Shown: positions 21,597 to 32,000 of the stretch, in pieces
How positions within the stretch are numbered: the first letter of the stretch is position 1
Layout of the letters: the number at the start of each line of letters is the position of its first letter
Source of the DNA: Archaeoglobus fulgidus DSM 4304
Lineage (GTDB): Archaea; Halobacteriota; Archaeoglobi; Archaeoglobales; Archaeoglobaceae
Direction of reading: 5' to 3'
DNA: 32,000 nt
NCBI RefSeq assembly: GCF_000008665.1
Contig: NC_000917.1
Coordinates: 1,380,001 to 1,412,000, forward strand
Translations under genes and position numbers: made by a program
The notes under the pieces: generated by a model
Database searches by the model: none
Seen by the model: only the letters and a program-made list of their open reading frames with translations
What the model was told of the DNA's origin: nothing

Positions 21597-24500
21597 ATGC
21601 ACATCGAGAAAATACGGCTGAAAAACTTTAAATCCTTCGGCAAAAAAGCTGAAATTCCTTTTTTCAAGGGATTTACCGTTATCACCGGGCCCAATGGTAG
21701 TGGTAAGTCAAACATCATCGACTCCATTCTTTTCTGCCTTGGCCTATCCACCTCAACAAAGCAGCTGAGAGCCGAGAGGCTAACAGACCTCGTCCACAAC
21801 GGAAGGAGCGAGGCGGAGGTTGCAATCCTCTTCTCCGAGAATGGAAAGAAGTACGAGATAGCGAGGAAGGTGAAAATTACGGAGAAGGGCTACTACAGCT
21901 ACTACTACCTCAACGGCAAGAGTGTTAGCCTCTCGGAAATTCACAGCTTTTTATCACAGTTCGGGATATACAGCGACGCTTACAACGTGGTGATGCAGGG
22001 AGACGTGACGAGAATAATCGAAATGTCCCCATTCCAGAGGAGAAAGATAATAGACGACGTTGCCGGTATCTCAGAATTCGACGAAAAGAAGGAGAAAGCG
22101 CTGGAAGAGCTTGAGAGAGTTAGGGAGAGCATAGAGAAGCTTGAAGCTGTTATTGCCGAAGTCAACGACAGACTTCAAACTCTGGAAAGGGACAGGAATG
22201 AGGCTATAAGATACAAGGAGATTCTGAGCAAAAAGGAAGAGTACGAAGGCTATTTGAGGGCTCACAACTACCTGACAGCCGTCAAAAGCAAAGAAAAAGT
22301 CGAAAGAGAGCTTGAAAGGCTTGAAAGGCAAAAGGATGAGCTGACAAGCAAGATACCGGAAATCAACGCGAGGATTGCTGAGCTCAATGAGAAAATCAAC
22401 GAGCTTGCCGCTAAAATCTCAGAGCTTGGAGACGAGAGGTCTGCCGAAATTCAATCGAGAATTCTCGAACTAAGCTCGGAGCTTGAATCTCTCAGGAGAG
22501 CGGAAAGATTCTACCTTGATGAGGCCAAAAGGCTTGAGGAGGAGTCTGTAAAGATAATTTCGGAAATATCCAAAATAAAGGAAGAAATGGAGAGCTTGGA
22601 TGGAGAGCTGGAGGAATACGCGATAAAAAGGATTCAGGTCGGAGAGATCGTTGATGAGCTTGCCGCTAAAATGGAGCTGCTGAGGCAAAGGCTGGAGGAG
22701 GTTGACAAAAAGCACAGAGAGCTGAGAGACAGGCTTGTAAGCAGAAAAGAGGAGCTCGAAATGTACAAGGAGAGGAGAGGTGAGATTTTAAGGGAAAGGG
22801 ACAAGCTCATCGAGCTGCTCAGAAGGATAGACATGGACGTTGAGGACATCAAAAACGAGATTGCATCTATTGAGTCCAAGCTAAAGGAGTTTGAGACCGA
22901 GAAGAAGGCCAAACAGGAGGAGGTCTGGAAGCAAGAAGAGGAGCTGATGAGCGCCAAAAAGATGCTCTCTTCAGCTGACAAAAAGCTTTTTGACATAAGG
23001 GCCAAGATTTCCGATGTCGAGGATGAGTTGAAAAAGGCCGAGCTTGAGCTTGCAAAGGTGAAGGCGACGCTCTCCACGCTGAGAACGTACTCAAAGCCGG
23101 TTGAAATTCTCCTCGATGCGAGAAACAGAAGAGAGCTCCCCGGAATCTTTGGGACGGTTGCACAGCTTGGCGAAGTGGATGAGGAGTACGTAGCTGCAAT
23201 TGAGGCCGCTGCTGGAAATGCTCTGCAGTTCGTCGTTGTTGAGACTGAAGATGATGCCGTTTCAGCTATAAACTTCCTAAAGGCGGTAAGAGGGGGGAGG
23301 GCTACCTTCATACCTCTCAGAAGGATAAAGAGCTTCAAGCTGAGCCTTGACAAGTCGATTCTGAAGGAGGACGGAGTTATAGACTTCGCCGTTAATCTCG
23401 TAAGGTGCGATAAGAAGTTCCAGCCTGTCTTCAGGTTTATTTTGAGGGACACGGTTGTTGTTGACAGGATTGAGACTGCAAAAAGGCTGATGGACAGGGG
23501 CTTCAGGTTCGTGACTCTGGACGGGGATATTGTTGAGAAGTCCGGTCTTATGACCGGTGGAAGCGCTGAAAAGAGGGGCATTCTCGTTTCAAGAGAGCTC
23601 TTGGAGAAGGAAAGAATGCTTTCCGATAAAATTTACGAGCTTCAGCGGGAGAAGGAGGGCCTTTTTGCGGAGCTTAACAGGGCTGAAAGCCTGAGGAAGC
23701 AGTACAAGGACGAGGTGGACAGGCTTACGGGAATGATCAGCGAGCTGAGAAACAGAATAAGTCTGCTCGACGAGAAAATAAGAACGGAGAGTGGAAGAAT
23801 TGAGGAGCTGAGGGAGAAGATTTCGCAGAAAAGCAGAGAGAAGGAGAATTACATAAGCTCCCTGAAGGATTACAACTCAAAGCTGGCGGAGATGGAGGAA
23901 GCGATTGGAGAACTTGAGGCGGAAATTGAGGAAATTGAGAGGATGCTCAGGGGCAGCGAGGTGCCGAAAATCGTGGAAGAGCTTGATAAAATTAAGGAGG
24001 AGCACCAGAGAAACAGGGAAATTCTCATTTCCATCGAAAAGAAGATTGAGAGCCTTGAATTCAAGAGAGAGCAGCTTGAAAGCAGCATGCAGGAAAAGCA
24101 GGTGTATCTGGATGAGATAAAGGACAGGATAGACGAAATTCGGAGGACGATTGAAGAGGGGAAGGCCAGAGTGGAGGAGATTAACTCCGAGCTCGAAGAG
24201 CTCAGGAAAGAGGAGAGGGAGCTTGGAAAGGAGCTTAAAGGCCTGAGAAAGGAGAGAGATGAGTTAATAAAGCAGTTGAGAAATGCTGAGGAAGAGAAGA
24301 GGAAAATCGAGGCTGAGATAGACAGGCTTGAGGAGAGGATAAAGCTCCAGAAGGAGAGGCTTGAGATTGCGGAATCTGAGATTGCAGAAATTGGCGAGGT
24401 CGAGGTTCCCGAAAACCTCCCACCGCTTGAAAAAGTTGAGAAGGTTCTTGATGAGGTGTTGGTAGAACTTTCAACATTTGGCGATGTTAACTTAAAGGCT

Positions 24501-25067
24501 ATTCAGGAGTACGAGGAGGTAAAGGCGAGGAGAGATGAGCTTGTTGAGAAAAAGATGGTTCTGGAGAAGGAGAGAGCTGATATTCTGGACAGAATTGAGA
24601 AATACGAGAGAATGAAGAGGGAAATATTTTTTGAGGTCTTCACCGCAATAAACAGGAACTTTGCAGAAATTATAAGGGAGTTGGCCAACGGGGAGGGAGA
24701 ACTTTACCTCGACAGCGATGATCCTTTCAACAGCGGGCTTTACATCAAAGTTAAGCCCAACAACAAGCCCGTGCAAAAACTTGAGTCCATGAGCGGTGGG
24801 GAGAAGAGCCTTGTTGCCCTTGCTTTAATCTTTGCCATCCAGATGTACAAGCCAGCCCCCTTCTATGCCTTCGACGAGGTTGACATGTTCCTTGACGGTG
24901 TGAACGTCGGAAGAGTGGCGAAGATGATAAAGAAGAGGTCGAAGGATGCTCAGTTCATTGTGGTCTCGCTCAGAAAGCCGATGCTTGAGCAGGCCGATGC
25001 GATTGTTGGAATAACACTGGGGAGGGATAACGTATCGCAGGTGACTGGAATCAAGCTGAAAACCTGA
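21597..25067 (+). CDS. smc: Chromosome segregation protein SMC
   Basis: Walker A GPNGSGKSN, two long coiled-coil arms, hinge GIFGTVAQLGEVDEEYVAAIEAAAGNALQFVVV, signature motif MSGGEKSLVALALIFA and Walker B FYAFDEVDMFLD. 1156 aa. Confidence 0.97.
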   Translation: MHIEKIRLKNFKSFGKKAEIPFFKGFTVITGPNGSGKSNIIDSILFCLGLSTSTKQLRAERLTDLVHNGRSEAEVAILFSENGKKYEIARKVKITEKGYYSYYYLNGKSVSLSEIHSFLSQFGIYSDAYNVVMQGDVTRIIEMSPFQRRKIIDDVAGISEFDEKKEKALEELERVRESIEKLEAVIAEVNDRLQTLERDRNEAIRYKEILSKKEEYEGYLRAHNYLTAVKSKEKVERELERLERQKDELTSKIPEINARIAELNEKINELAAKISELGDERSAEIQSRILELSSELESLRRAERFYLDEAKRLEEESVKIISEISKIKEEMESLDGELEEYAIKRIQVGEIVDELAAKMELLRQRLEEVDKKHRELRDRLVSRKEELEMYKERRGEILRERDKLIELLRRIDMDVEDIKNEIASIESKLKEFETEKKAKQEEVWKQEEELMSAKKMLSSADKKLFDIRAKISDVEDELKKAELELAKVKATLSTLRTYSKPVEILLDARNRRELPGIFGTVAQLGEVDEEYVAAIEAAAGNALQFVVVETEDDAVSAINFLKAVRGGRATFIPLRRIKSFKLSLDKSILKEDGVIDFAVNLVRCDKKFQPVFRFILRDTVVVDRIETAKRLMDRGFRFVTLDGDIVEKSGLMTGGSAEKRGILVSRELLEKERMLSDKIYELQREKEGLFAELNRAESLRKQYKDEVDRLTGMISELRNRISLLDEKIRTESGRIEELREKISQKSREKENYISSLKDYNSKLAEMEEAIGELEAEIEEIERMLRGSEVPKIVEELDKIKEEHQRNREILISIEKKIESLEFKREQLESSMQEKQVYLDEIKDRIDEIRRTIEEGKARVEEINSELEELRKEERELGKELKGLRKERDELIKQLRNAEEEKRKIEAEIDRLEERIKLQKERLEIAESEIAEIGEVEVPENLPPLEKVEKVLDEVLVELSTFGDVNLKAIQEYEEVKARRDELVEKKMVLEKERADILDRIEKYERMKREIFFEVFTAINRNFAEIIRELANGEGELYLDSDDPFNSGLYIKVKPNNKPVQKLESMSGGEKSLVALALIFAIQMYKPAPFYAFDEVDMFLDGVNVGRVAKMIKKRSKDAQFIVVSLRKPMLEQADAIVGITLGRDNVSQVTGIKLKT

Positions 25068-25099
25068 GCTTTGAGGACCCCATTGAGATTCTCATTGAG

Positions 25100-25774
25100 A
25101 TGGCCAAGAGGGGTGAGATAGACCCCTGGAACATCGACGTAGTTGACGTTACGGACAGATTTCTGAAAAGGATAGAGGATGCCAAAAAGCTTGATTTGAG
25201 AGTTTCAGGAAGAGTTTTGCTTTACGCTGCAATCCTCGTCAGGATGAAGGCCGAAGCAATAACACTTGAGGCTTTGGGTGGAGATGAGGAGGAAGAGCTT
25301 GAAATGTACGACTACGACTCTTTCTACTTTCTGGATGAGCCCCTTGAGTTTCCTGAGGAGGTTGACGAGGAGGAGCTTGACGAGGTTATCCTTGAAGCTC
25401 TCACCTCCATGAGGAGAAGGGTAAGGAAGATTACGACACTTAAAGACCTGATAGACGAGCTCAGGAGGGCAGAGGAGGTTGAGAGAAGGAGAAGGAGGAG
25501 AAGGAGGAGGGAGAGACAGGAGGAAGTTGGGATAGATGCAGCCTTAAGGGTTCCACACGAGGAAAGCCTTGAGGAGATGATTGCGAGAGTTGAGAGAGAG
25601 GTTTTTGAAGCTTTGAGGAAAAAGGATACGGTAACGCTTTTCTCTCTCGTTAAATCGTGGGATGTGCCAACCCTCGTGGACTATTACGTTTCCGTCTTGC
25701 ACCTGGCCTTCAGAAAGAAGGTGGAAATCAGGCAAGAGGAGTTTTATGGGGATGTCGAAATTCAGAAGTTTTGA
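25100..25774 (+). CDS. scpA: Segregation and condensation protein A (kleisin ScpA); true start probably upstream of this ATG
   Basis: GEIDPWNIDVVDVTDRFLKRIE...GRVLLYAAILVRMKAE is the ScpA N-domain, followed by an acidic linker and a C-terminal winged-helix region. The same frame is open back to 25031 and encodes the conserved SFEDPIEILIE segment (see findings). Confidence 0.85.
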   Translation: MAKRGEIDPWNIDVVDVTDRFLKRIEDAKKLDLRVSGRVLLYAAILVRMKAEAITLEALGGDEEEELEMYDYDSFYFLDEPLEFPEEVDEEELDEVILEALTSMRRRVRKITTLKDLIDELRRAEEVERRRRRRRRRERQEEVGIDAALRVPHEESLEEMIARVEREVFEALRKKDTVTLFSLVKSWDVPTLVDYYVSVLHLAFRKKVEIRQEEFYGDVEIQKF

Positions 25775-27407: not shown

Positions 27408-27821
27408 ATGGATAGAGGGAGAAAGGTTCCGGAAGAGCAGATTATATACGCAGACATTCTCTACTACGGAGGGCTGATAGGAATAATATTTATGGCCATC
27501 ACCTTTGCCATCTACGTCTCAGGAACGCTACCGTCTCTGGTGAAGCCTGAGGAGCTGACGGAGCTATGGACTCACGACACGCACTACTACCTTGAAGAGA
27601 CTGGACTTCCAACTGGATGGGGATGGATTAACTACGTTACCTACGGGGATGTGCTGAACTTCGTTGCCCTCGCATTCCTTGCAATGATTACAATAATCTG
27701 CTATCTGGCCATAATTCCGGTTTTGCTGAAAAAGAAGGACATAATTTACACAATTCTGGCCATCGCAGAGGTAATAATACTGCTGCTTGCAGCAAGCGGC
27801 CTCCTGCAGGCCGGGCACTAA
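27408..27821 (+). CDS. Small integral membrane protein coupled to the TauE-like gene (possibly DUF1634-like)
   Basis: ATG 27408 is preceded by GAGGTGG, which overlaps the upstream stop. 3-4 TM helices. I prefer this start over the TTG 27381 in the ORF track. Confidence 0.65.
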   Translation: MDRGRKVPEEQIIYADILYYGGLIGIIFMAITFAIYVSGTLPSLVKPEELTELWTHDTHYYLEETGLPTGWGWINYVTYGDVLNFVALAFLAMITIICYLAIIPVLLKKKDIIYTILAIAEVIILLLAASGLLQAGH

Positions 27822-27822
27822 A

Positions 27823-27829
27823 TTTTTTT
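27823..27829 (+). terminator. T7 oligo-T terminator between convergent genes
   Basis: ttttttt begins 2 nt after TAA 27819-27821. Confidence 0.55.
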
Positions 27830-27852
27830 AAGTTTTGCATCCAACAACACAC

Positions 27853-28686
27853 TCAGTCAAGAGACCTCAACAAAAACTCCCTCTCCCTCTCAACGCAGAA
27901 CTCGAAAAGGCTGAGGTAAACGTCGAAGTGGTCGCCATTAACCCTCAGCACTTCTGAGTTTTTGGTCATCTCCGCTGCCTTCAATGCAGCCTCTGCCGGA
28001 GTAATCCCATCTCTCTCCGCAACAACATACAGAACGGGACATCTAATCCGCTCCACTCTCTCAACTGGCCTGTATCTCACAATGCTTAGAGCGATTCTTG
28101 CGGGAACAGCATTGAACCACTCCACACCTTCAGGAATGATGTAGCGGTACTTCTCAGCCTCGCGAGAGCTCATGAAGGCAAAACCTCCCTCAGGGGCGAA
28201 AATAGGAACGTAGTTAACTCTGCCGATGAAGGAGAGCAATTTGTCCACCATTCCTGAGAAAGTCAGCCTTAAGACGTTCTTTACCCCAGCTGCCCTTGCA
28301 ACAGCCAGACCATCAACGAAGGGGACCTGAGAGACGACTGCATCCACATCCACTTCTGAGGCAATCGTCAGAACGTGTCCACCGCTGAAGGAAGTTCCCC
28401 AAAGAGCAATTTTTTCGTAACCGAGACTTCTGGCGAATTCAATCGCATTCCTCCAGTCTTCAAGCTGCGTGTTTATGTCAATAAGCTGTCTCGGCCAACC
28501 TTCACTCTCCCCGAAAAAGCGGTAGTCGAATAGCAGAACTCCAAAATCCTCAGAGAATCTTTCCGCATAGGGAATGAGGGATTCCTTCACCGCCCCAAAA
28601 CCGTGCGCCATAACTACGCACTTCTCTCTGCCCTCGTAGTGTAGCGCCGCAACTTTCAAACCGCCAGACTCAAAGAAGAGATTCAT
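27853..28686 (-). CDS. Alpha/beta-fold hydrolase (dienelactone-hydrolase / S9-like)
   Basis: VVMAHGFGAVKE, nucleophile elbow LWGTSFSGGH, VVAERDGITP and GDHFDVY. I prefer ATG 28686 because aaaatttaaaataaaaa lies about 23 nt upstream. The alternative start at 28737 would overlap the regulator gene by 29 nt. Confidence 0.8.
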   Translation of the reverse strand: MNLFFESGGLKVAALHYEGREKCVVMAHGFGAVKESLIPYAERFSEDFGVLLFDYRFFGESEGWPRQLIDINTQLEDWRNAIEFARSLGYEKIALWGTSFSGGHVLTIASEVDVDAVVSQVPFVDGLAVARAAGVKNVLRLTFSGMVDKLLSFIGRVNYVPIFAPEGGFAFMSSREAEKYRYIIPEGVEWFNAVPARIALSIVRYRPVERVERIRCPVLYVVAERDGITPAEAALKAAEMTKNSEVLRVNGDHFDVYLSLFEFCVEREREFLLRSLD

Positions 28687-28708
28687 GAGATTTGTTGTGT
28701 TTTTTATT

Positions 28709-29356
28709 TTAAATTTTGTCGGTGCAGTGTAAACCATATTTTTTTCCGTCTTTAATGATTATTCCAAGCTCCTCCATTTCGCTTAAGTGGTAAAGAACCG
28801 TCTTGACACTCAGATTGAGCCTTCCAGCAATTTCTTTTGCCGTCATTCCCCCGTTCTCTTTCAGCAGATCCAAAATGTCTTTCTTTCTTCCCTTCAGTGA
28901 ATAAGAGGGTTCGAAAGGCATATCCGCAGGAAAAACGCATCTGCTTCCGCCATATCTGACAGTATTAACGAGCCCCTCGCCTTCAAGTTGCCTCAGGTAG
29001 TAGCGAAGGGTGCTCCTGTTCATCTCCAGAACTCTCTCAAGCTCGGTTATACTCATCCCCGGATTCTCTGCCACGGCGTTGAGGATTTGCAACCTCTTTG
29101 AGCTCAAAAACGACCTGAATTTTGCAATCACAACTGGCAAAAGCTTCCAGACCGCTATCAACCCGCCCAGAATGCCAAGAATGTACTGAACCTTAATCCA
29201 AAGCGGCAAATCCCAGAATGTGATGCGAATTTCGTTGGCATCATCTTCCTCAAGAATCTTCTGCAGTTTCTCGTCGCTGATGTTTACTGGCTGGTCGCTG
29301 AAGGCGGAAACAGGATAGGTTAGCAGGAGAAAAATTAGCAGAAGCTTAGCCCTCAT
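28709..29356 (-). CDS. Membrane-anchored transcriptional regulator with two cytoplasmic winged-helix (ArsR/MarR-like) modules
   Basis: Signal-peptide-like MRAKLLLIFLLLTYPVSA, an acidic segment of about 45 aa, the TM helix VQYILGILGGLIAVWKLLPVVIA followed by KFRSFLSSKR, then wHTH-1 (LQILNAVAENPGMSITELERVLEMNRSTLRYYLRQLEGEGLV) and wHTH-2 (ILDLLKENGGMTAKEIAGRLNLSVKTVLYHLSEMEELGII). Confidence 0.75.
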   Translation of the reverse strand: MRAKLLLIFLLLTYPVSAFSDQPVNISDEKLQKILEEDDANEIRITFWDLPLWIKVQYILGILGGLIAVWKLLPVVIAKFRSFLSSKRLQILNAVAENPGMSITELERVLEMNRSTLRYYLRQLEGEGLVNTVRYGGSRCVFPADMPFEPSYSLKGRKKDILDLLKENGGMTAKEIAGRLNLSVKTVLYHLSEMEELGIIIKDGKKYGLHCTDKI

Positions 29357-29385
29357 AAACCGCTAAGGAGTAACGCTGAACACCA

Positions 29386-29607
29386 TCAGCTGCCATCGGG
29401 AGAGTAAACGGTAAGAGTCAGGCTGTTGGAGGGGTTGTTCCACACCAGATAAACGTCAAAGGTGTGTGACGTAACGTAGGAGGTGTACCAGTGCGACTCT
29501 CCCTGCTTTATGTAGTCGTTCACGGTTTTGATGCCAATTTCTTTCGCTGCTGCTGCGTGCGTGAGAAGGAGTGCAAAAATCAAACCCAGACTCAAAACCA
29601 ACCTCAT
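29386..29607 (-). CDS. Small secreted protein (about 50-aa mature part, beta-sandwich-like), possibly truncated
   Basis: Signal peptide MRLVLSLGLIFALLLTHAAAA, then HWYTSYVTSHTFDVYLVWNNPSNSLTLTVYSPDGS*. TATA ttatatat (reverse strand, 29629-29636) lies about 25 nt upstream of the ATG. Confidence 0.5.
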   Translation of the reverse strand: MRLVLSLGLIFALLLTHAAAAKEIGIKTVNDYIKQGESHWYTSYVTSHTFDVYLVWNNPSNSLTLTVYSPDGS

Positions 29608-29674
29608 ACCCTAATTTGCAGCTTGCTAATATATAACTTTTCTGACCAAAGATTTAGAATATAATTCTGCTTAA

Positions 29675-29744
29675 ATATTCTCAAACTATGGTCAGAAACT
29701 ACATATAGCAATTGATGTATCGTTTTAATGGTGGTGGTAGCATG
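29675..29744 (+). repeat. Copy 1 of a ~70-bp promoter/leader direct repeat
   Basis: atattctcaaactatggtcagaaactacatatagcaattgatgtat is 46/46 identical to 31411-31456. This is followed by a c/t mismatch, 13/13 identical (gttttaatggtgg), a 3-nt versus 1-nt indel, then tagcatg. A weaker match, ataatt, extends upstream. Confidence 0.9.
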
Positions 29745-30506
29745 AAACATTCGATAATGGTGTGGGTATATGTTTGTTTAGCAGCATTCACTTTAGCAGG
29801 GAAAACACTGGCTTATGACGTGGGTGCAGCTGTAGCCTTCTCAGAAGACCCGGAGGACGTTTGGTTCAACAGTGTCAGCCAGTTCGTTGAGATAATATCG
29901 AGCGAACCAACTTGGGTACAACACTTCCTCAATGACTACCCGAACGTAGGACCTTATATGTGGACGGAAGAGGAGAAAGGTAATGACAATTTCTACGCCG
30001 ATTACACAGAACTATCCTTAGTTTTAGGGCATGGAGTTGTTGTGGTCTATCCTGATGGAACAAAAAAGAGTGCAATAGGCTTTGCAGACCGAGGATATGC
30101 ACTCCCAGATGATATTAGACTTGGGTATGCCAGCCCAGATGGATTTGGATACAGCGTGTGGACTTTCATAATCCAATGCAGTGTTCTGGGAGACGAATAT
30201 GTAGACGACTGGCTTCAAACTTTGCAAGGTGTTCATATGGTTTTAGGCTTTGCAAGCACTGCTACCATCAGTAATGCCGACTTTCCAGAATTAGCATATC
30301 GACTAACAGGCACAGGTGGTTATACCAGAGAAAAGGTCGAAAGTGCCTTTTTTAGTACGTTTCTTAAATCGGATGGCGTGCATGATGATAACAGGGCCAG
30401 AATTATAGCCGAAAACTCTGAAGTACTTGATAACGACTACTTAAACAGCTTTGAACGTGTGCCGGTTGATGGAAGCAAGATAATCGTTACTGGGTGGGTG
30501 GGGTGA
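29742..30506 (+). CDS. Secreted hypothetical protein with a caspase-like HG ... QC motif pair
   Basis: Signal peptide MKHSIMVWVYVCLAAFTLAGKTLA. The start is set at ATG 29742 by analogy with repeat copy 2, where the upstream frame is closed; the ORF track starts at TTG 29712. Motifs LSLVLGHG (His codon 30030-30032) and WTFIIQCSVLG (Cys codon 30177-30179). Confidence 0.7.
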   Translation: MKHSIMVWVYVCLAAFTLAGKTLAYDVGAAVAFSEDPEDVWFNSVSQFVEIISSEPTWVQHFLNDYPNVGPYMWTEEEKGNDNFYADYTELSLVLGHGVVVVYPDGTKKSAIGFADRGYALPDDIRLGYASPDGFGYSVWTFIIQCSVLGDEYVDDWLQTLQGVHMVLGFASTATISNADFPELAYRLTGTGGYTREKVESAFFSTFLKSDGVHDDNRARIIAENSEVLDNDYLNSFERVPVDGSKIIVTGWVG

Positions 30507-30510
30507 AAAA

Positions 30511-31398
30511 ATGAAAAAATACCTTGCGCTCGCTGCAATTGTGGCTATTTGCGCTCTGTGGCTCACCCAGAACAGCAACTTCGAAGCGGGGAAAACTTTC
30601 AAATTGTTCGATTCAGGAAAAACTGCGATACTCCGGCCAGTAATCTACTACAACCTGCCTAACGGAAGTGTAATCGAGGTCAGAGATAGTAATCCCTTTC
30701 CGTTTACCATCGAACTGGCGAGTGGTGGTTTAGGGATAAATGCACCTTCAAAATCATTGGAAGTTTACACCTACGAGACTTATAAAAAGCCGGAGGAGAT
30801 AAAGGTTATCGCAAAATCTTTTGGAGCATCTTTGGATAAGCTCTACTACAACGAAATTACGCATGCGTACCTCTACAACGATGAAAAGCTTAGCTTTGAA
30901 TACTACCCTAATACTGGGTATCTCAGAATTCTCTTCAAGAATTCAAGTCTGGAAAAGGCTTCAATTTTAAATGGGCTTCTAAACTACAGCTATCAGAAAA
31001 TCGAAAAGAACGGAGGAGTATTTTACGCAAGAAACTTTGACGGTTTATCATCTAACGTCGGTTTGCTTGTTAAATCCGATGAAAAGGGGATAAGAAGCAT
31101 TGAAGGAATACTGCTAAAAAGTGTAAAGCTTAAAGGAAAATACGAACTCATTCCAATTGACAGGATTCCAGAAATGCTCGAAAAAAGGGTTAAAGGTGAC
31201 CTTAAAGCGGACGACTGGTATTTAAGCAACATCGCCTTTACCAAACTAACACTAACGAATGTTTCTCTGATGTACACAATCACTCCTGACGGTATTCTTC
31301 CAGTCTACTGGTTTGAAGGAAAGTATGAGCTTGATTTTGAAGGAATAAAAGACTCAGGAACTGTGGAGGGGAGAATAGTGGCTGTTAGTGCTAATTAA
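30511..31398 (+). CDS. Secreted or membrane-anchored hypothetical protein
   Basis: Starts 4 nt after the preceding stop. N-terminal hydrophobic helix MKKYLALAAIVAICALWL. 295 aa, Asn/Lys/Tyr-rich. No family recognised. Confidence 0.65.
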   Translation: MKKYLALAAIVAICALWLTQNSNFEAGKTFKLFDSGKTAILRPVIYYNLPNGSVIEVRDSNPFPFTIELASGGLGINAPSKSLEVYTYETYKKPEEIKVIAKSFGASLDKLYYNEITHAYLYNDEKLSFEYYPNTGYLRILFKNSSLEKASILNGLLNYSYQKIEKNGGVFYARNFDGLSSNVGLLVKSDEKGIRSIEGILLKSVKLKGKYELIPIDRIPEMLEKRVKGDLKADDWYLSNIAFTKLTLTNVSLMYTITPDGILPVYWFEGKYELDFEGIKDSGTVEGRIVAVSAN

Positions 31399-31410
31399 GT
31401 TATAATTTTT

Positions 31411-31478
31411 ATATTCTCAAACTATGGTCAGAAACTACATATAGCAATTGATGTATTGTTTTAATGGTGGATAGCATG
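31411..31478 (+). repeat. Copy 2 of the ~70-bp promoter/leader direct repeat
   Basis: See copy 1. This copy ends at the ATG (31476) of the next signal-peptide gene. Confidence 0.9.
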
Positions 31479-32000
31479 CTGAAAAAGGTGTTGAGTCTGG
31501 TTTTGGTGTTGGTGATGCTGAGCAGCAGCGTTGTGCCAGTGATGGCGGCGAGCGATGCAGAAAAGTGCAGCTGCGGAGCATGCGAAATAACCTTGAAGAG
31601 AGTTGTCGAAGTGGAACTGGCTAAAAACGGAAAAACGATTCTAAACGTCACTGAAATCAATCAAAGCCTTAGCGAGTGGTTTGCTGAGAACTTCGAAGGA
31701 AGCTTCAGTTGCGCAGACGGAAGCTGTCTTGCTTTCGATTACCAGCTGGAAATTAAGGAGCTACTGAACTTGTCGAAAAACAACAAGGAGCTGAAGTTGC
31801 TTGAGATTAAAGTTTACAACGAAACCACCAGCCACGAATTCAAGCTCCTCAGCTACTTTGCACAAACCGCAACTTACAACCTCAGCCTGATTACGAGAAT
31901 AATGGAAATCGACGGTGAGAACTACTTCGTCACAACCATTAACGTTGCTCCCAAGGACGATAAGAAGTTTGCTCCCTTTGCCGACATCGTGGAGATCAAG
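31476..32000 (+). CDS. Secreted Cys-containing hypothetical protein; partial, runs off the right edge
   Basis: Not in the ORF track because it has no stop. The frame is open for 175 codons from ATG 31476 to 32000. Translation: MLKKVLSLVLVLVMLSSSVVPVMAASDAEKCSCGACEITLKRV...SCADGSCLAFDYQLEIKE. Confidence 0.7.
   Translation, partial: MLKKVLSLVLVLVMLSSSVVPVMAASDAEKCSCGACEITLKRVVEVELAKNGKTILNVTEINQSLSEWFAENFEGSFSCADGSCLAFDYQLEIKELLNLSKNNKELKLLEIKVYNETTSHEFKLLSYFAQTATYNLSLITRIMEIDGENYFVTTINVAPKDDKKFAPFADIVEIK

Follow-up and report, generated by a model that had tools for sequence, protein, structure and literature searches.

We analysed a 32,000-nt stretch of the Archaeoglobus fulgidus DSM 4304 genome (NC_000917.1, positions 1,380,001 to 1,412,000; hereafter the window), focusing on the block of five open reading frames (ORFs) at its right-hand end, which correspond to AF_1564–AF_1568. 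Our favoured reading, which we hold to be fairly probable, places this region at the control end of a co-regulated island that varies between strains and encodes secreted antagonism proteins of the halocin C8/polymorphic-toxin type. The comparisons support a block that is wired to its neighbouring membrane-anchored regulator via a shared conserved promoter unit, one copy of which would drive the regulator's own operon. Alignments of strains showed that homologous recombination exchanges cargo at three kinds of site: the repeated promoter unit, similar signal-peptide codons, and a conserved pro-domain.

An earlier note on this DNA had described five consecutive ORFs that each begin with a signal peptide or a transmembrane (TM) helix, and had taken them for a self-regulated accessory module acting outside the cytoplasm. 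A Kyte–Doolittle scan confirmed the run: an N-terminal hydrophobic segment was found in all five block ORFs and in seven of the 29 flank genes, and at the flank-gene rate the chance of five such ORFs in succession was ~8e-4. Once the downstream genes beyond the window were added, the segment was present in nine of 10 genes. The extracytoplasmic character of the block was supported, as was its accessory nature, the latter by atypical composition, variation between A. fulgidus strains, and absence of the two-gene core from one strain with identical flanks. What did not stand was the closed five-gene module of an undescribed kind. The block is the left end of a ~13-kb island: its last ORF is a paralog of the downstream gene AF_1570, and its low-GC gene pair is an independent mobile cassette. 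Part of the island is already annotated, as RefSeq calls AF_1570 a 'halocin C8-like domain-containing protein'. The remark that the non-regulator proteins belonged to no recognisable family held for AF_1567. AF_1566 passes the Pfam family DUF6345, AF_1568 falls in the halocin-C8-type precursor family, and the full-length, 123-aa form of AF_1565 has a marginal pre-peptidase C-terminal (PPC) domain.

The features discussed below are listed by window position and strand; L and P numbers are our labels for the loci and proteins compared.

28709–29356 (−): regulator AF_1564
29386–29607 (−): 73-aa ORF AF_1565
29630–29662 (−): leftward promoter unit, minus-strand reading ATATTCTAAATCTTTGGTCAGAAAAGTTATATA, forming an inverted repeat with 29675–29707 (79% complementary)
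29675–29744 (+): rightward promoter unit, copy 1, with the candidate operator TATTCT-N7-TGGTCAGAA, the ATATA resembling a B recognition element (BRE)/TATA box, the GGTGG leader, and the AF_1566 ATG
29742–30506 (+): 254-aa ORF AF_1566
30511–31398 (+): 295-aa ORF AF_1567
29675–31410 (+): cassette of 1,736 bp that some strains have and others lack, carrying AF_1566, AF_1567, and a single copy of the repeat
31411–31478 (+): rightward promoter unit, copy 2, the promoter/leader of AF_1568 and the right boundary repeat of the cassette
31476 (or in-frame ATG 31464) to the window end at 32000 (+): start part of AF_1568, 175 aa inside the window
27853–28737 (−): alpha/beta hydrolase, AF_1563-like (Abhydrolase_1, E = 1.4e-12)
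downstream of the window: AF_1569, multi-TM protein
downstream of the window: AF_1571, Zn phospholipase-C-like protein

The promoter unit and the regulator operon

The promoter unit reads TATTCT-N7-TGGTCAGAA-N5-ATATA. Three copies are present in the window and a fourth lies downstream, before a 120-aa gene. Alignment of the four island copies gave the invariant core ATATTCT·AA·CT·TGGTCAGAAA-N4-ATATA, and no such repeats are expected by chance. The two rightward copies share a 60-nt direct repeat (29675–29734 versus 31411–31470, 98% identity), and copy 1 doubles as the left boundary repeat of the cassette. The 134-bp region from which the regulator and secreted-protein operons were said to diverge was recovered at 29608–29741, with the leftward unit and rightward copy 1 standing back to back.

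The distance from ATATA to the ATG is 22 nt for AF_1565, which suggests a leaderless transcript, and 32–34 nt for AF_1566 and AF_1568, with GGTGG in between. Such spacing fits an archaeal TATA box with leaderless or short-leader mRNA. The two in-frame ATGs of AF_1568, at 31464 and 31476, underlie annotations of 350 aa and 346 aa; the upstream ATG is 20 nt past ATATA, in the position of a leaderless start, and the downstream one is behind GGTGGA.

We scanned 185,579 genomes and a metagenome collection for the unit using the cross-genus footprint TATTCT-N-AA-N4-TGGTCAGAA-N5-ATATA. Matches were found only in Archaeoglobus and Geoglobus (Archaeoglobaceae) metagenome-assembled genomes (MAGs) or taxonomically unassigned contigs. 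Wherever an ORF could be identified downstream of a match, its product carried a signal-like segment at the N-terminus, frequently with the pattern …LLVLVMLSS…PVMA, and the TATA-to-ATG distance was 20–24 nt or 31–39 nt. One Geoglobus contig carried two back-to-back divergent unit pairs, with a gap of 14–16 nt as in the window. The downstream cargo included a lipoprotein-like ORF and, recurrently in Geoglobus, a secreted HExxH protein (HEISH…EC·MNY·Y; L016/L030 446–1600) that is not assigned to a family; a fragment related to this protein lies near the DUF6345 gene pair of A. neptunius (L010 12175–12423). A unit-like match with two mismatches at window position 22222 (−), inside the SMC gene, was taken as chance.

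A 60-nt repeat flanking a cassette of foreign composition might also be read as what is left of a mobile element or of a duplication, without any part in regulation, which would make the five ORFs an accidental accessory cluster, and the truncation or frameshifting of several island genes in some strains would fit such an origin. We find this very improbable. The unit core is conserved across two genera while its flanks have diverged, the unit keeps a fixed spacing to the start codon, the genes behind it invariably encode secreted proteins, and searches for a transposase, an integrase, or a PHROG match found none. In addition, the order unit, PPC-like 123-aa gene, AF_1564-like regulator gene is kept at 38–46% protein identity (38% in L024 and 46% in L028). 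The unit was not found in the A. neptunius, P. furiosus, T. cleftensis, L011, and L019 loci, and an AF_1564-type regulator was also absent there. From the conserved gene order and this joint absence, we conclude that the conserved core is a divergent promoter pair together with the operon that encodes the PPC protein and the membrane-anchored regulator. Self-regulation, which the earlier note had proposed, is plausible from this anatomy.

AF_1564 proved to be the membrane-anchored regulator with tandem winged helix-turn-helix (wHTH) domains that had been described. Hydropathy and profiles placed a signal/TM segment at the N-terminus, followed by ~30 aa of ectodomain, a TM helix at residues ~52–80, and two cytoplasmic wHTH domains. 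Matches to HTH_5 (79.9 bits, E = 1.3e-22), HTH_24 (78.8 bits, E = 2.2e-22), and HTH_20 (69 bits) were above cutoffs and of ArsR/MarR type, with each model matching two stretches (residues 86–131 and 158–200). The architecture is kept in the L024 homolog (38% identical), where the stretch spanning ectodomain and TM helix, P·NISDE·L…FW·LPLWIKV, is more conserved than the protein overall. In joining a DNA-binding domain to a membrane anchor and a small extracytoplasmic part, and in the adjacency of its gene to its proposed targets, AF_1564 resembles membrane-tethered one-component transcription factors (ToxR/CadC of bacteria; ArnR/ArnR1 of Sulfolobus). It differs from them in the order of its parts (signal/TM, ectodomain, TM, two C-terminal wHTH domains), in having tandem ArsR/MarR-type wHTH domains and not an OmpR-type domain, and in its predicted co-transcription with a small secreted PPC-like protein.

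In the window, AF_1565 is a 73-aa truncation of a 123-aa PPC-like (beta-sandwich) secreted protein. Approximately 110 extra bases at window position ~29389 yield the 123-aa form in L002, L004, L006, and L020 (compare L004 2871–2985 with window 29386–29392), and half of the PPC-like domain is lost in the 73-aa form, which is that of DSM 4304/8774-type strains. The longer form aligned with the full 70-position PPC profile (PF04151) at 23.4 bits (E = 1.1e-4; cutoff 25.9) and bears the UniRef name 'Peptidase C-terminal archaeal/bacterial domain-containing protein'; the 73-aa form gave no PPC match in Pfam. Homologs of 46–59% identity adjoin the promoter unit in L024, L028, L029, and L034. The 123-aa form overlaps the regulator start by ~10 nt, which suggests that the two are translationally coupled.

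The regulator gene is altered in several relatives. It is split into ORFs of 132 aa and 106 aa by an apparent frameshift in DSM 8774 (L001 8201–8849), fused to the alpha/beta hydrolase in a 500-aa ORF in L002 (7239–8741), and fused to the PPC gene in L023 (335 aa). These forms may be natural regulatory mutants or assembly errors. In the window, the hydrolase gene overlaps the 3′ end of the regulator gene by 29 nt, and it probably closes the leftward operon. Its product has no signal peptide, and its best NCBIfam match was the quorum-quenching N-acyl-homoserine lactonase UilS (E = 1e-30), at 107 bits versus a cutoff of 400.

Halocin C8-type precursors and exchange of their tails

The last 10 kb of the window is 99.7–99.8% identical to A. 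fulgidus genomes. The window holds the Sec-type signal peptide of AF_1568 and part of its conserved pro-domain, and ends at residue 175. The full sequence was supplied by L003, a metagenomic Archaeoglobus contig with which these last 10 kb align at 100% identity. The complete protein has 346–350 aa, and its tail, which lies beyond the window end, is a hydrophobic stretch of ~110 aa that is rich in Cys, Gly, and Ala and contains 18 Cys. Two genes downstream, AF_1570 (207 aa, 10 Cys) matched the whole profile of the halocin C8 model TIGR04449 (E = 3.5e-16; 60 bits versus a cutoff of 24). It is a paralog of AF_1568 (E = 1e-54, 48% identity over 170 aa), and the two can be aligned as far as the first CxxC of both tails.

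A database search returned 23 relatives of AF_1568, with named sources in the Archaeoglobaceae/Archaeoglobales except for CL1_0815 of Thermococcus cleftensis; seven of the 23 family members passed TIGR04449. Of two proteins named halocin C8-like, P0144 shared 55% identity with AF_1568 over 86% of the length of AF_1568, and P0146 shared 53% over 65%. In the family alignment, a Sec-type signal peptide is followed by the N-domain, the near-invariant motif LAEHYRxLxKVLNExRK·D·TSWVWNK…EYNVEG, and the Cys-rich tail. The tails begin past an Asp that is conserved in at least 90% of members (D237 in AF_1568) and are of at least two types, short HalC8-like and long AF_1568-like.

A point of comparison is the halocin C8 locus of Natrinema sp. 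AS7092, where the precursor ProC8 (HalI + HalC8) is Tat-exported and cleaved to give an N-terminal immunity part and a lytic peptide of 76 aa, by a mechanism that remains unknown, and where the neighbours of halC8 are halR, halU, and halT1-3 (2026 preprint). The archaeocin on which TIGR04449 is based has been shown by experiment to be lytic (2026 preprint). In both loci the precursor carries a signal for export and a long N-terminal region ahead of a hydrophobic, Cys-rich peptide at the C-terminus, and a transcription regulator is encoded beside the precursor genes; AF_1570, with its 10 Cys, matches the HalC8 model over its full length. Several differences were also evident. The signal of the Archaeoglobus precursors is of Sec type (MLKKVLSLVLVL…VMA), with no twin-arginine motif, and the island has no neighbouring ABC transporter genes. 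The N-domain has no detectable similarity to HalI-containing models (NF040679 aligned on the tail only, and TIGR04450 gave E = 0.87). Furthermore, two paralogs flank the multi-TM protein AF_1569, the longer 18-Cys tail of AF_1568 fails the model, and the host is a hyperthermophilic sulfate reducer, not a haloarchaeon.

The content of the island varied between A. fulgidus strains, and three exchange events could be read from the alignments. In the first, the cassette was gained or lost at the 60-nt promoter repeat (L020 versus the window). The second is seen in DSM 8774, where P0135 combines the head of AF_1568 with the tail of AF_1570 and AF_1569 has been lost. In the third, the promoter, leader, and first ~12 codons of AF_1568 are joined to the phospholipase-C-like gene in L002, the crossover lying inside similar signal-peptide codons. 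In another MAG contig (L014), yet another HalC8-type tail stands before an 85-aa TM protein, and a novel cargo of 350 aa is encoded behind the unit.

Polymorphic toxin and archaeocin loci have reportedly been described in archaea, by Makarova and colleagues in 2019. The island resembles such loci in its conserved N-terminal parts and variable C-terminal tails, in tail swapping by recombination (P0135), in the small membrane proteins that follow the tails, and in its strain-variable content. It departs from them in that small hydrophobic peptides rich in disulfides form its tails in place of enzymatic toxin domains, that exchange also takes place at the repeated promoter/signal-peptide head, and that it has a dedicated conserved promoter unit and a membrane-tethered regulator.

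Three side observations concern relatives of AF_1568. The T. cleftensis locus (L018 10001–12950) holds two AF_1568-type paralogs of 43% and 32% identity (tblastn) and several unassigned genes; together with the 44%-identical CL1_0815, these suggest transfer between Archaeoglobales and Thermococcales. P0135 of DSM 8774 (L001 10966–11892) is annotated in GenBank as 'Firmicute eSAT-6 protein secretion system EssA', which looks like a misannotation. In L019 (12249–13145), a Zn phospholipase-C-like gene beside the AF_1568 homolog is broken into four frames and is an apparent pseudogene.

The AF_1566/AF_1567 cassette

The two-gene core differs from its surroundings in composition. Gene GC content was 0.443 for AF_1566 and 0.403 for AF_1567, compared with 0.482 ± 0.024 for the 29 flank genes; GC content at third codon positions was 0.398 and 0.426, compared with 0.564 ± 0.047, which is ~3 standard deviations (SD) lower, and the match to flank-gene codon usage was 2–3.7 SD lower. 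A dip of about 10 points had been claimed from hand counts; its direction was right, and its size by gene GC is 4–8 points.

The cassette is missing from L020. The flanking genes there are those of the window (SMC, ScpA, TauE, the hydrolase, the regulator, and then the 123-aa gene), and the last of them is followed directly by an AF_1568 homolog. Window 29392–29744 maps to L020 7849–8199 and window 31411–31999 to L020 8132–8714. As these target ranges overlap, a single unit in L020 equals both repeats of the window, without the gene pair between them. The pair was found adjacent in four unrelated contexts, and an AF_1567 homolog was always directly 3′ of the DUF6345 gene (P. furiosus, E = 5e-54; A. 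neptunius, 62% identity; metagenomic contig L011). In A. neptunius, P. furiosus, and the metagenomic contig, the pair occurs without an AF_1564-type regulator.

AF_1566 passes DUF6345 (PF19872) with 32.9 bits (E = 5.6e-8; cutoff 26.9), and the family was matched by 37 of 40 aligned relatives. DUF6345 is small (59 representatives at E < 1e-3 among 1.84 billion), and its members elsewhere are fused to PKD, fn3, LamG, FG-GAP, dockerin, and type IX secretion system (T9SS) tail domains, i.e., extracellular modules. An AlphaFold2 model built on a 12-sequence DUF6345 alignment had a predicted local distance difference test score (pLDDT) of 35; a 40-sequence alignment including distant profile matches was used instead and gave a pLDDT of 94.5 and a predicted template modelling (pTM) score of 0.89. 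The top Foldseek matches in the Protein Data Bank (PDB) were caspase-11, caspase-4, and Dronc, with legumain and MALT1 also found; all were weak (E 4.7e-3 to 0.1, template modelling score ~0.4). In the model, H97 lies behind strand 91–95 and C146 behind strand 140–144. H97 is kept in 37 of 38 members and C146 in 38 of 39, residue 98 is Gly in 26 and Ser in eight, and distant members read YYSGHG, HAGHG, ALSACKVL, and LLHCCKVL at the His and Cys columns. One member, P0067, matched Peptidase_C14 in the same region with 20.5 bits (E = 4.3e-4; cutoff 21.4); the other 39 gave no Peptidase_C14 match, and a search of PDB sequences with the DUF6345 profile returned nothing meaningful.

AF_1566 likely contains a clan CD-like Cys/His domain, and is predicted to be a secreted protein with a caspase-like alpha/beta fold and the conserved pair His97/Cys146. 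It is like clan CD (caspases C14, legumain C13, gingipain C25, clostripain C11) in its predicted alpha/beta fold, for which caspases, legumain, and MALT1 are the best PDB matches, and in having a His (usually His-Gly) after one strand and a Cys after the next hydrophobic strand, both conserved in at least 97%; a further likeness is predicted secretion, often with fusion to adhesion modules. It differs in its low structural similarity, in that no member reaches a peptidase Pfam cutoff, and in its third conserved His (H165) and obligate downstream partner gene. A 422-aa neighbour in A. neptunius ('YYSGHG…VVSACYAG') was considered as a fused DUF6345 relative and dropped at an hhalign probability of 0.5%.

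A predicted caspase-like secreted protein that is encoded just ahead of the precursors, under another copy of their promoter unit, invites the explanation that the pair is a dedicated halocin maturation module, in which AF_1566 would cleave AF_1568 and AF_1570 at their conserved junction and AF_1567 would act as chaperone, inhibitor, or anchor. The conserved His/Cys pair of AF_1566 and the junction motif EYNVEG…D of the precursor family agree with this, and such an enzyme would fill the cleavage gap of halocin C8, for which no mechanism is known (2026 preprint). Yet the two parts occur independently: L020 retains the precursors without the pair, the precursor loci of T. cleftensis and L019 have no pair within 10 kb, and P. 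furiosus, L011, and A. neptunius have the pair with no halocin-like gene within 10 kb. Moreover, the inferred site would put Asp at P1′, whereas known clan CD enzymes select on P1. The independent occurrence makes a dedicated maturase role unlikely, and by these comparisons the low-GC pair is best described as independent mobile cargo, not as an obligate halocin maturase.

For AF_1567, searches of Pfam, NCBIfam, PADLOC, PHROGs, and PDB sequences, the last also with a profile of its family, gave no assignment. The protein is N-terminally anchored or secreted, and its constant place behind DUF6345 suggests that it may be a cognate inhibitor, immunity protein, or anchor of the DUF6345 protein.

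In P. furiosus, the genes beside the pair (L008 11845–14482) encode a TrmB/HTH_5 regulator, a 116-aa LiaF-TM-like membrane protein, and a 548-aa radical SAM/SPASM enzyme, for which a peptide-maturation context is possible; type I cas genes follow after a few more kb.

Proposed mechanism and competing explanations

We propose that the leftward unit would transcribe AF_1565, AF_1564, and probably the hydrolase gene, and that the rightward units would transcribe secreted cargo, namely the AF_1566/AF_1567 cassette and then AF_1568, with AF_1569, AF_1570, and AF_1571 downstream. AF_1564 would sense an extracytoplasmic cue via the short, conserved ectodomain, perhaps with the PPC protein of the same predicted operon as a partner; its two wHTH domains could read two half-sites just upstream of BRE/TATA, and its binding would control all units, including that of its own operon. 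AF_1568 and AF_1570 would be exported by Sec and cleaved near the conserved Asp, freeing hydrophobic disulfide-rich peptides that attack the envelopes of competitors. AF_1566 and AF_1567 may represent a separate secreted cysteine-peptidase effector and its cognate inhibitor, immunity, or anchor protein; they might help to mature the precursors, which do not require the pair.

A broader formulation, which we offer tentatively, is that of a so far undescribed Archaeoglobaceae regulon of secreted proteins with exchangeable cassettes. The unit pair and the PPC/regulator operon would form its core, and homologous recombination would place variable weapon cargo behind further promoter/signal-peptide heads: halocin-C8-type peptides with swappable tails, DUF6345 proteins with their partner, phospholipase-C-like proteins, and HExxH proteases. 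DUF6345 would then be a new family of secreted clan CD peptidases with the partner as inhibitor or immunity protein, and the arrangement would be functionally integron-like with no integrase.

The cargo behind the units is diverse and often enzyme-like (Zn phospholipase C, the Geoglobus HExxH protein, DUF6345, and the lipoprotein-like ORF), and the toxin role of the peptides is a prediction from their sequences. This would also suit a non-antagonistic exoprotein regulon, in which secreted hydrolases (peptidase, phospholipase, metalloprotease) and surface proteins serve nutrient acquisition, envelope remodelling, or biofilm formation and the halocin-like peptides are structural or membrane proteins. 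Searches of defence and phage gene families agree with it: AF_1565 to AF_1572 matched no PADLOC or PHROGs model, and in these collections the regulator appeared only as a generic wHTH protein and the hydrolase as lipase-like. Readings of the block as a defence system or a provirus were dropped, as these scans gave them no support. We nevertheless find an exoprotein regulon doubtful. Swappable C-terminal tails, neighbouring small TM proteins, presence or absence between strains, and atypical composition are hallmarks of conflict loci, not of housekeeping exoenzymes; TIGR04449, furthermore, derives from a peptide with lytic activity.

Several points weigh against the antagonism island itself. 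AF_1568 gave no match to TIGR04449 at E ≤ 1, and an hhalign comparison of eight long with six short tails reached a probability of 43% (E = 2.5e-4, 45 columns), with a bias from Cys-rich composition likely. We therefore make no claim that the long tail is a divergent HalC8 domain; AF_1568 is placed in the precursor family on the strength of its pro-domain and is not regarded as a proven carrier of the HalC8 domain. The caspase-fold match of AF_1566 is weak (template modelling score ~0.40, best E = 4.7e-3), with generic flavodoxin-like folds interleaved among the matches, and pair and precursors are found apart in both directions, as described above. The role of the unit as the AF_1564 binding site is that of a candidate, assigned by inference, and its conserved CAGAA…ATATA part may simply be BRE/TATA. 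Given the truncated AF_1565 and the frameshifted regulator of DSM 8774, parts of the system may be decaying. Finally, a literature search yielded nothing on the function of DUF6345 and, for the locus tags, unrelated accession numbers only.

What appears to be new is the pairing of a promoter/operator unit with a PPC protein and a membrane-tethered tandem-wHTH regulator, the exchange of cassettes and tails at repeated heads, the long-tail precursor variant, and the fold hypothesis for DUF6345. Archaeocins are known almost only from haloarchaea and Sulfolobales, and their regulation, export, and maturation are largely open. The locus offers a precise candidate operator and a candidate membrane sensor, and constitutes a compact natural test set in a cultivable hyperthermophile, with strains that have or lack the cassette, swapped tails, a truncated PPC protein, and a frameshifted regulator. 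For DUF6345, which also occurs in bacterial surface proteins with PKD, dockerin, and T9SS modules, the caspase-like Cys/His assignment is a first structural and functional hypothesis. The promoter and signal-peptide repeats can serve as recombination handles for the exchange of secreted cargo.

With regard to its surroundings, the ~13-kb island (AF_1563/4 to about AF_157x) lies between the TauE and AF_1016-family genes downstream of scpA on one side and scpB on the other. Rfam detected no family within 27500–32000. The version of the island in L002 (13750–14513) includes a HepT/MNT (Polbeta) toxin–antitoxin pair and a Kelch-like beta-propeller protein. In the window, smc-scpA is followed by a 134-aa ORF, a TauE-family exporter gene, and a gene for an AF_1016-family membrane protein (~21597–25774), and scpB is on the opposite strand (L004 14034–14534). 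It is unusual for condensin partner genes to be parted by ~13 kb of variable DNA.

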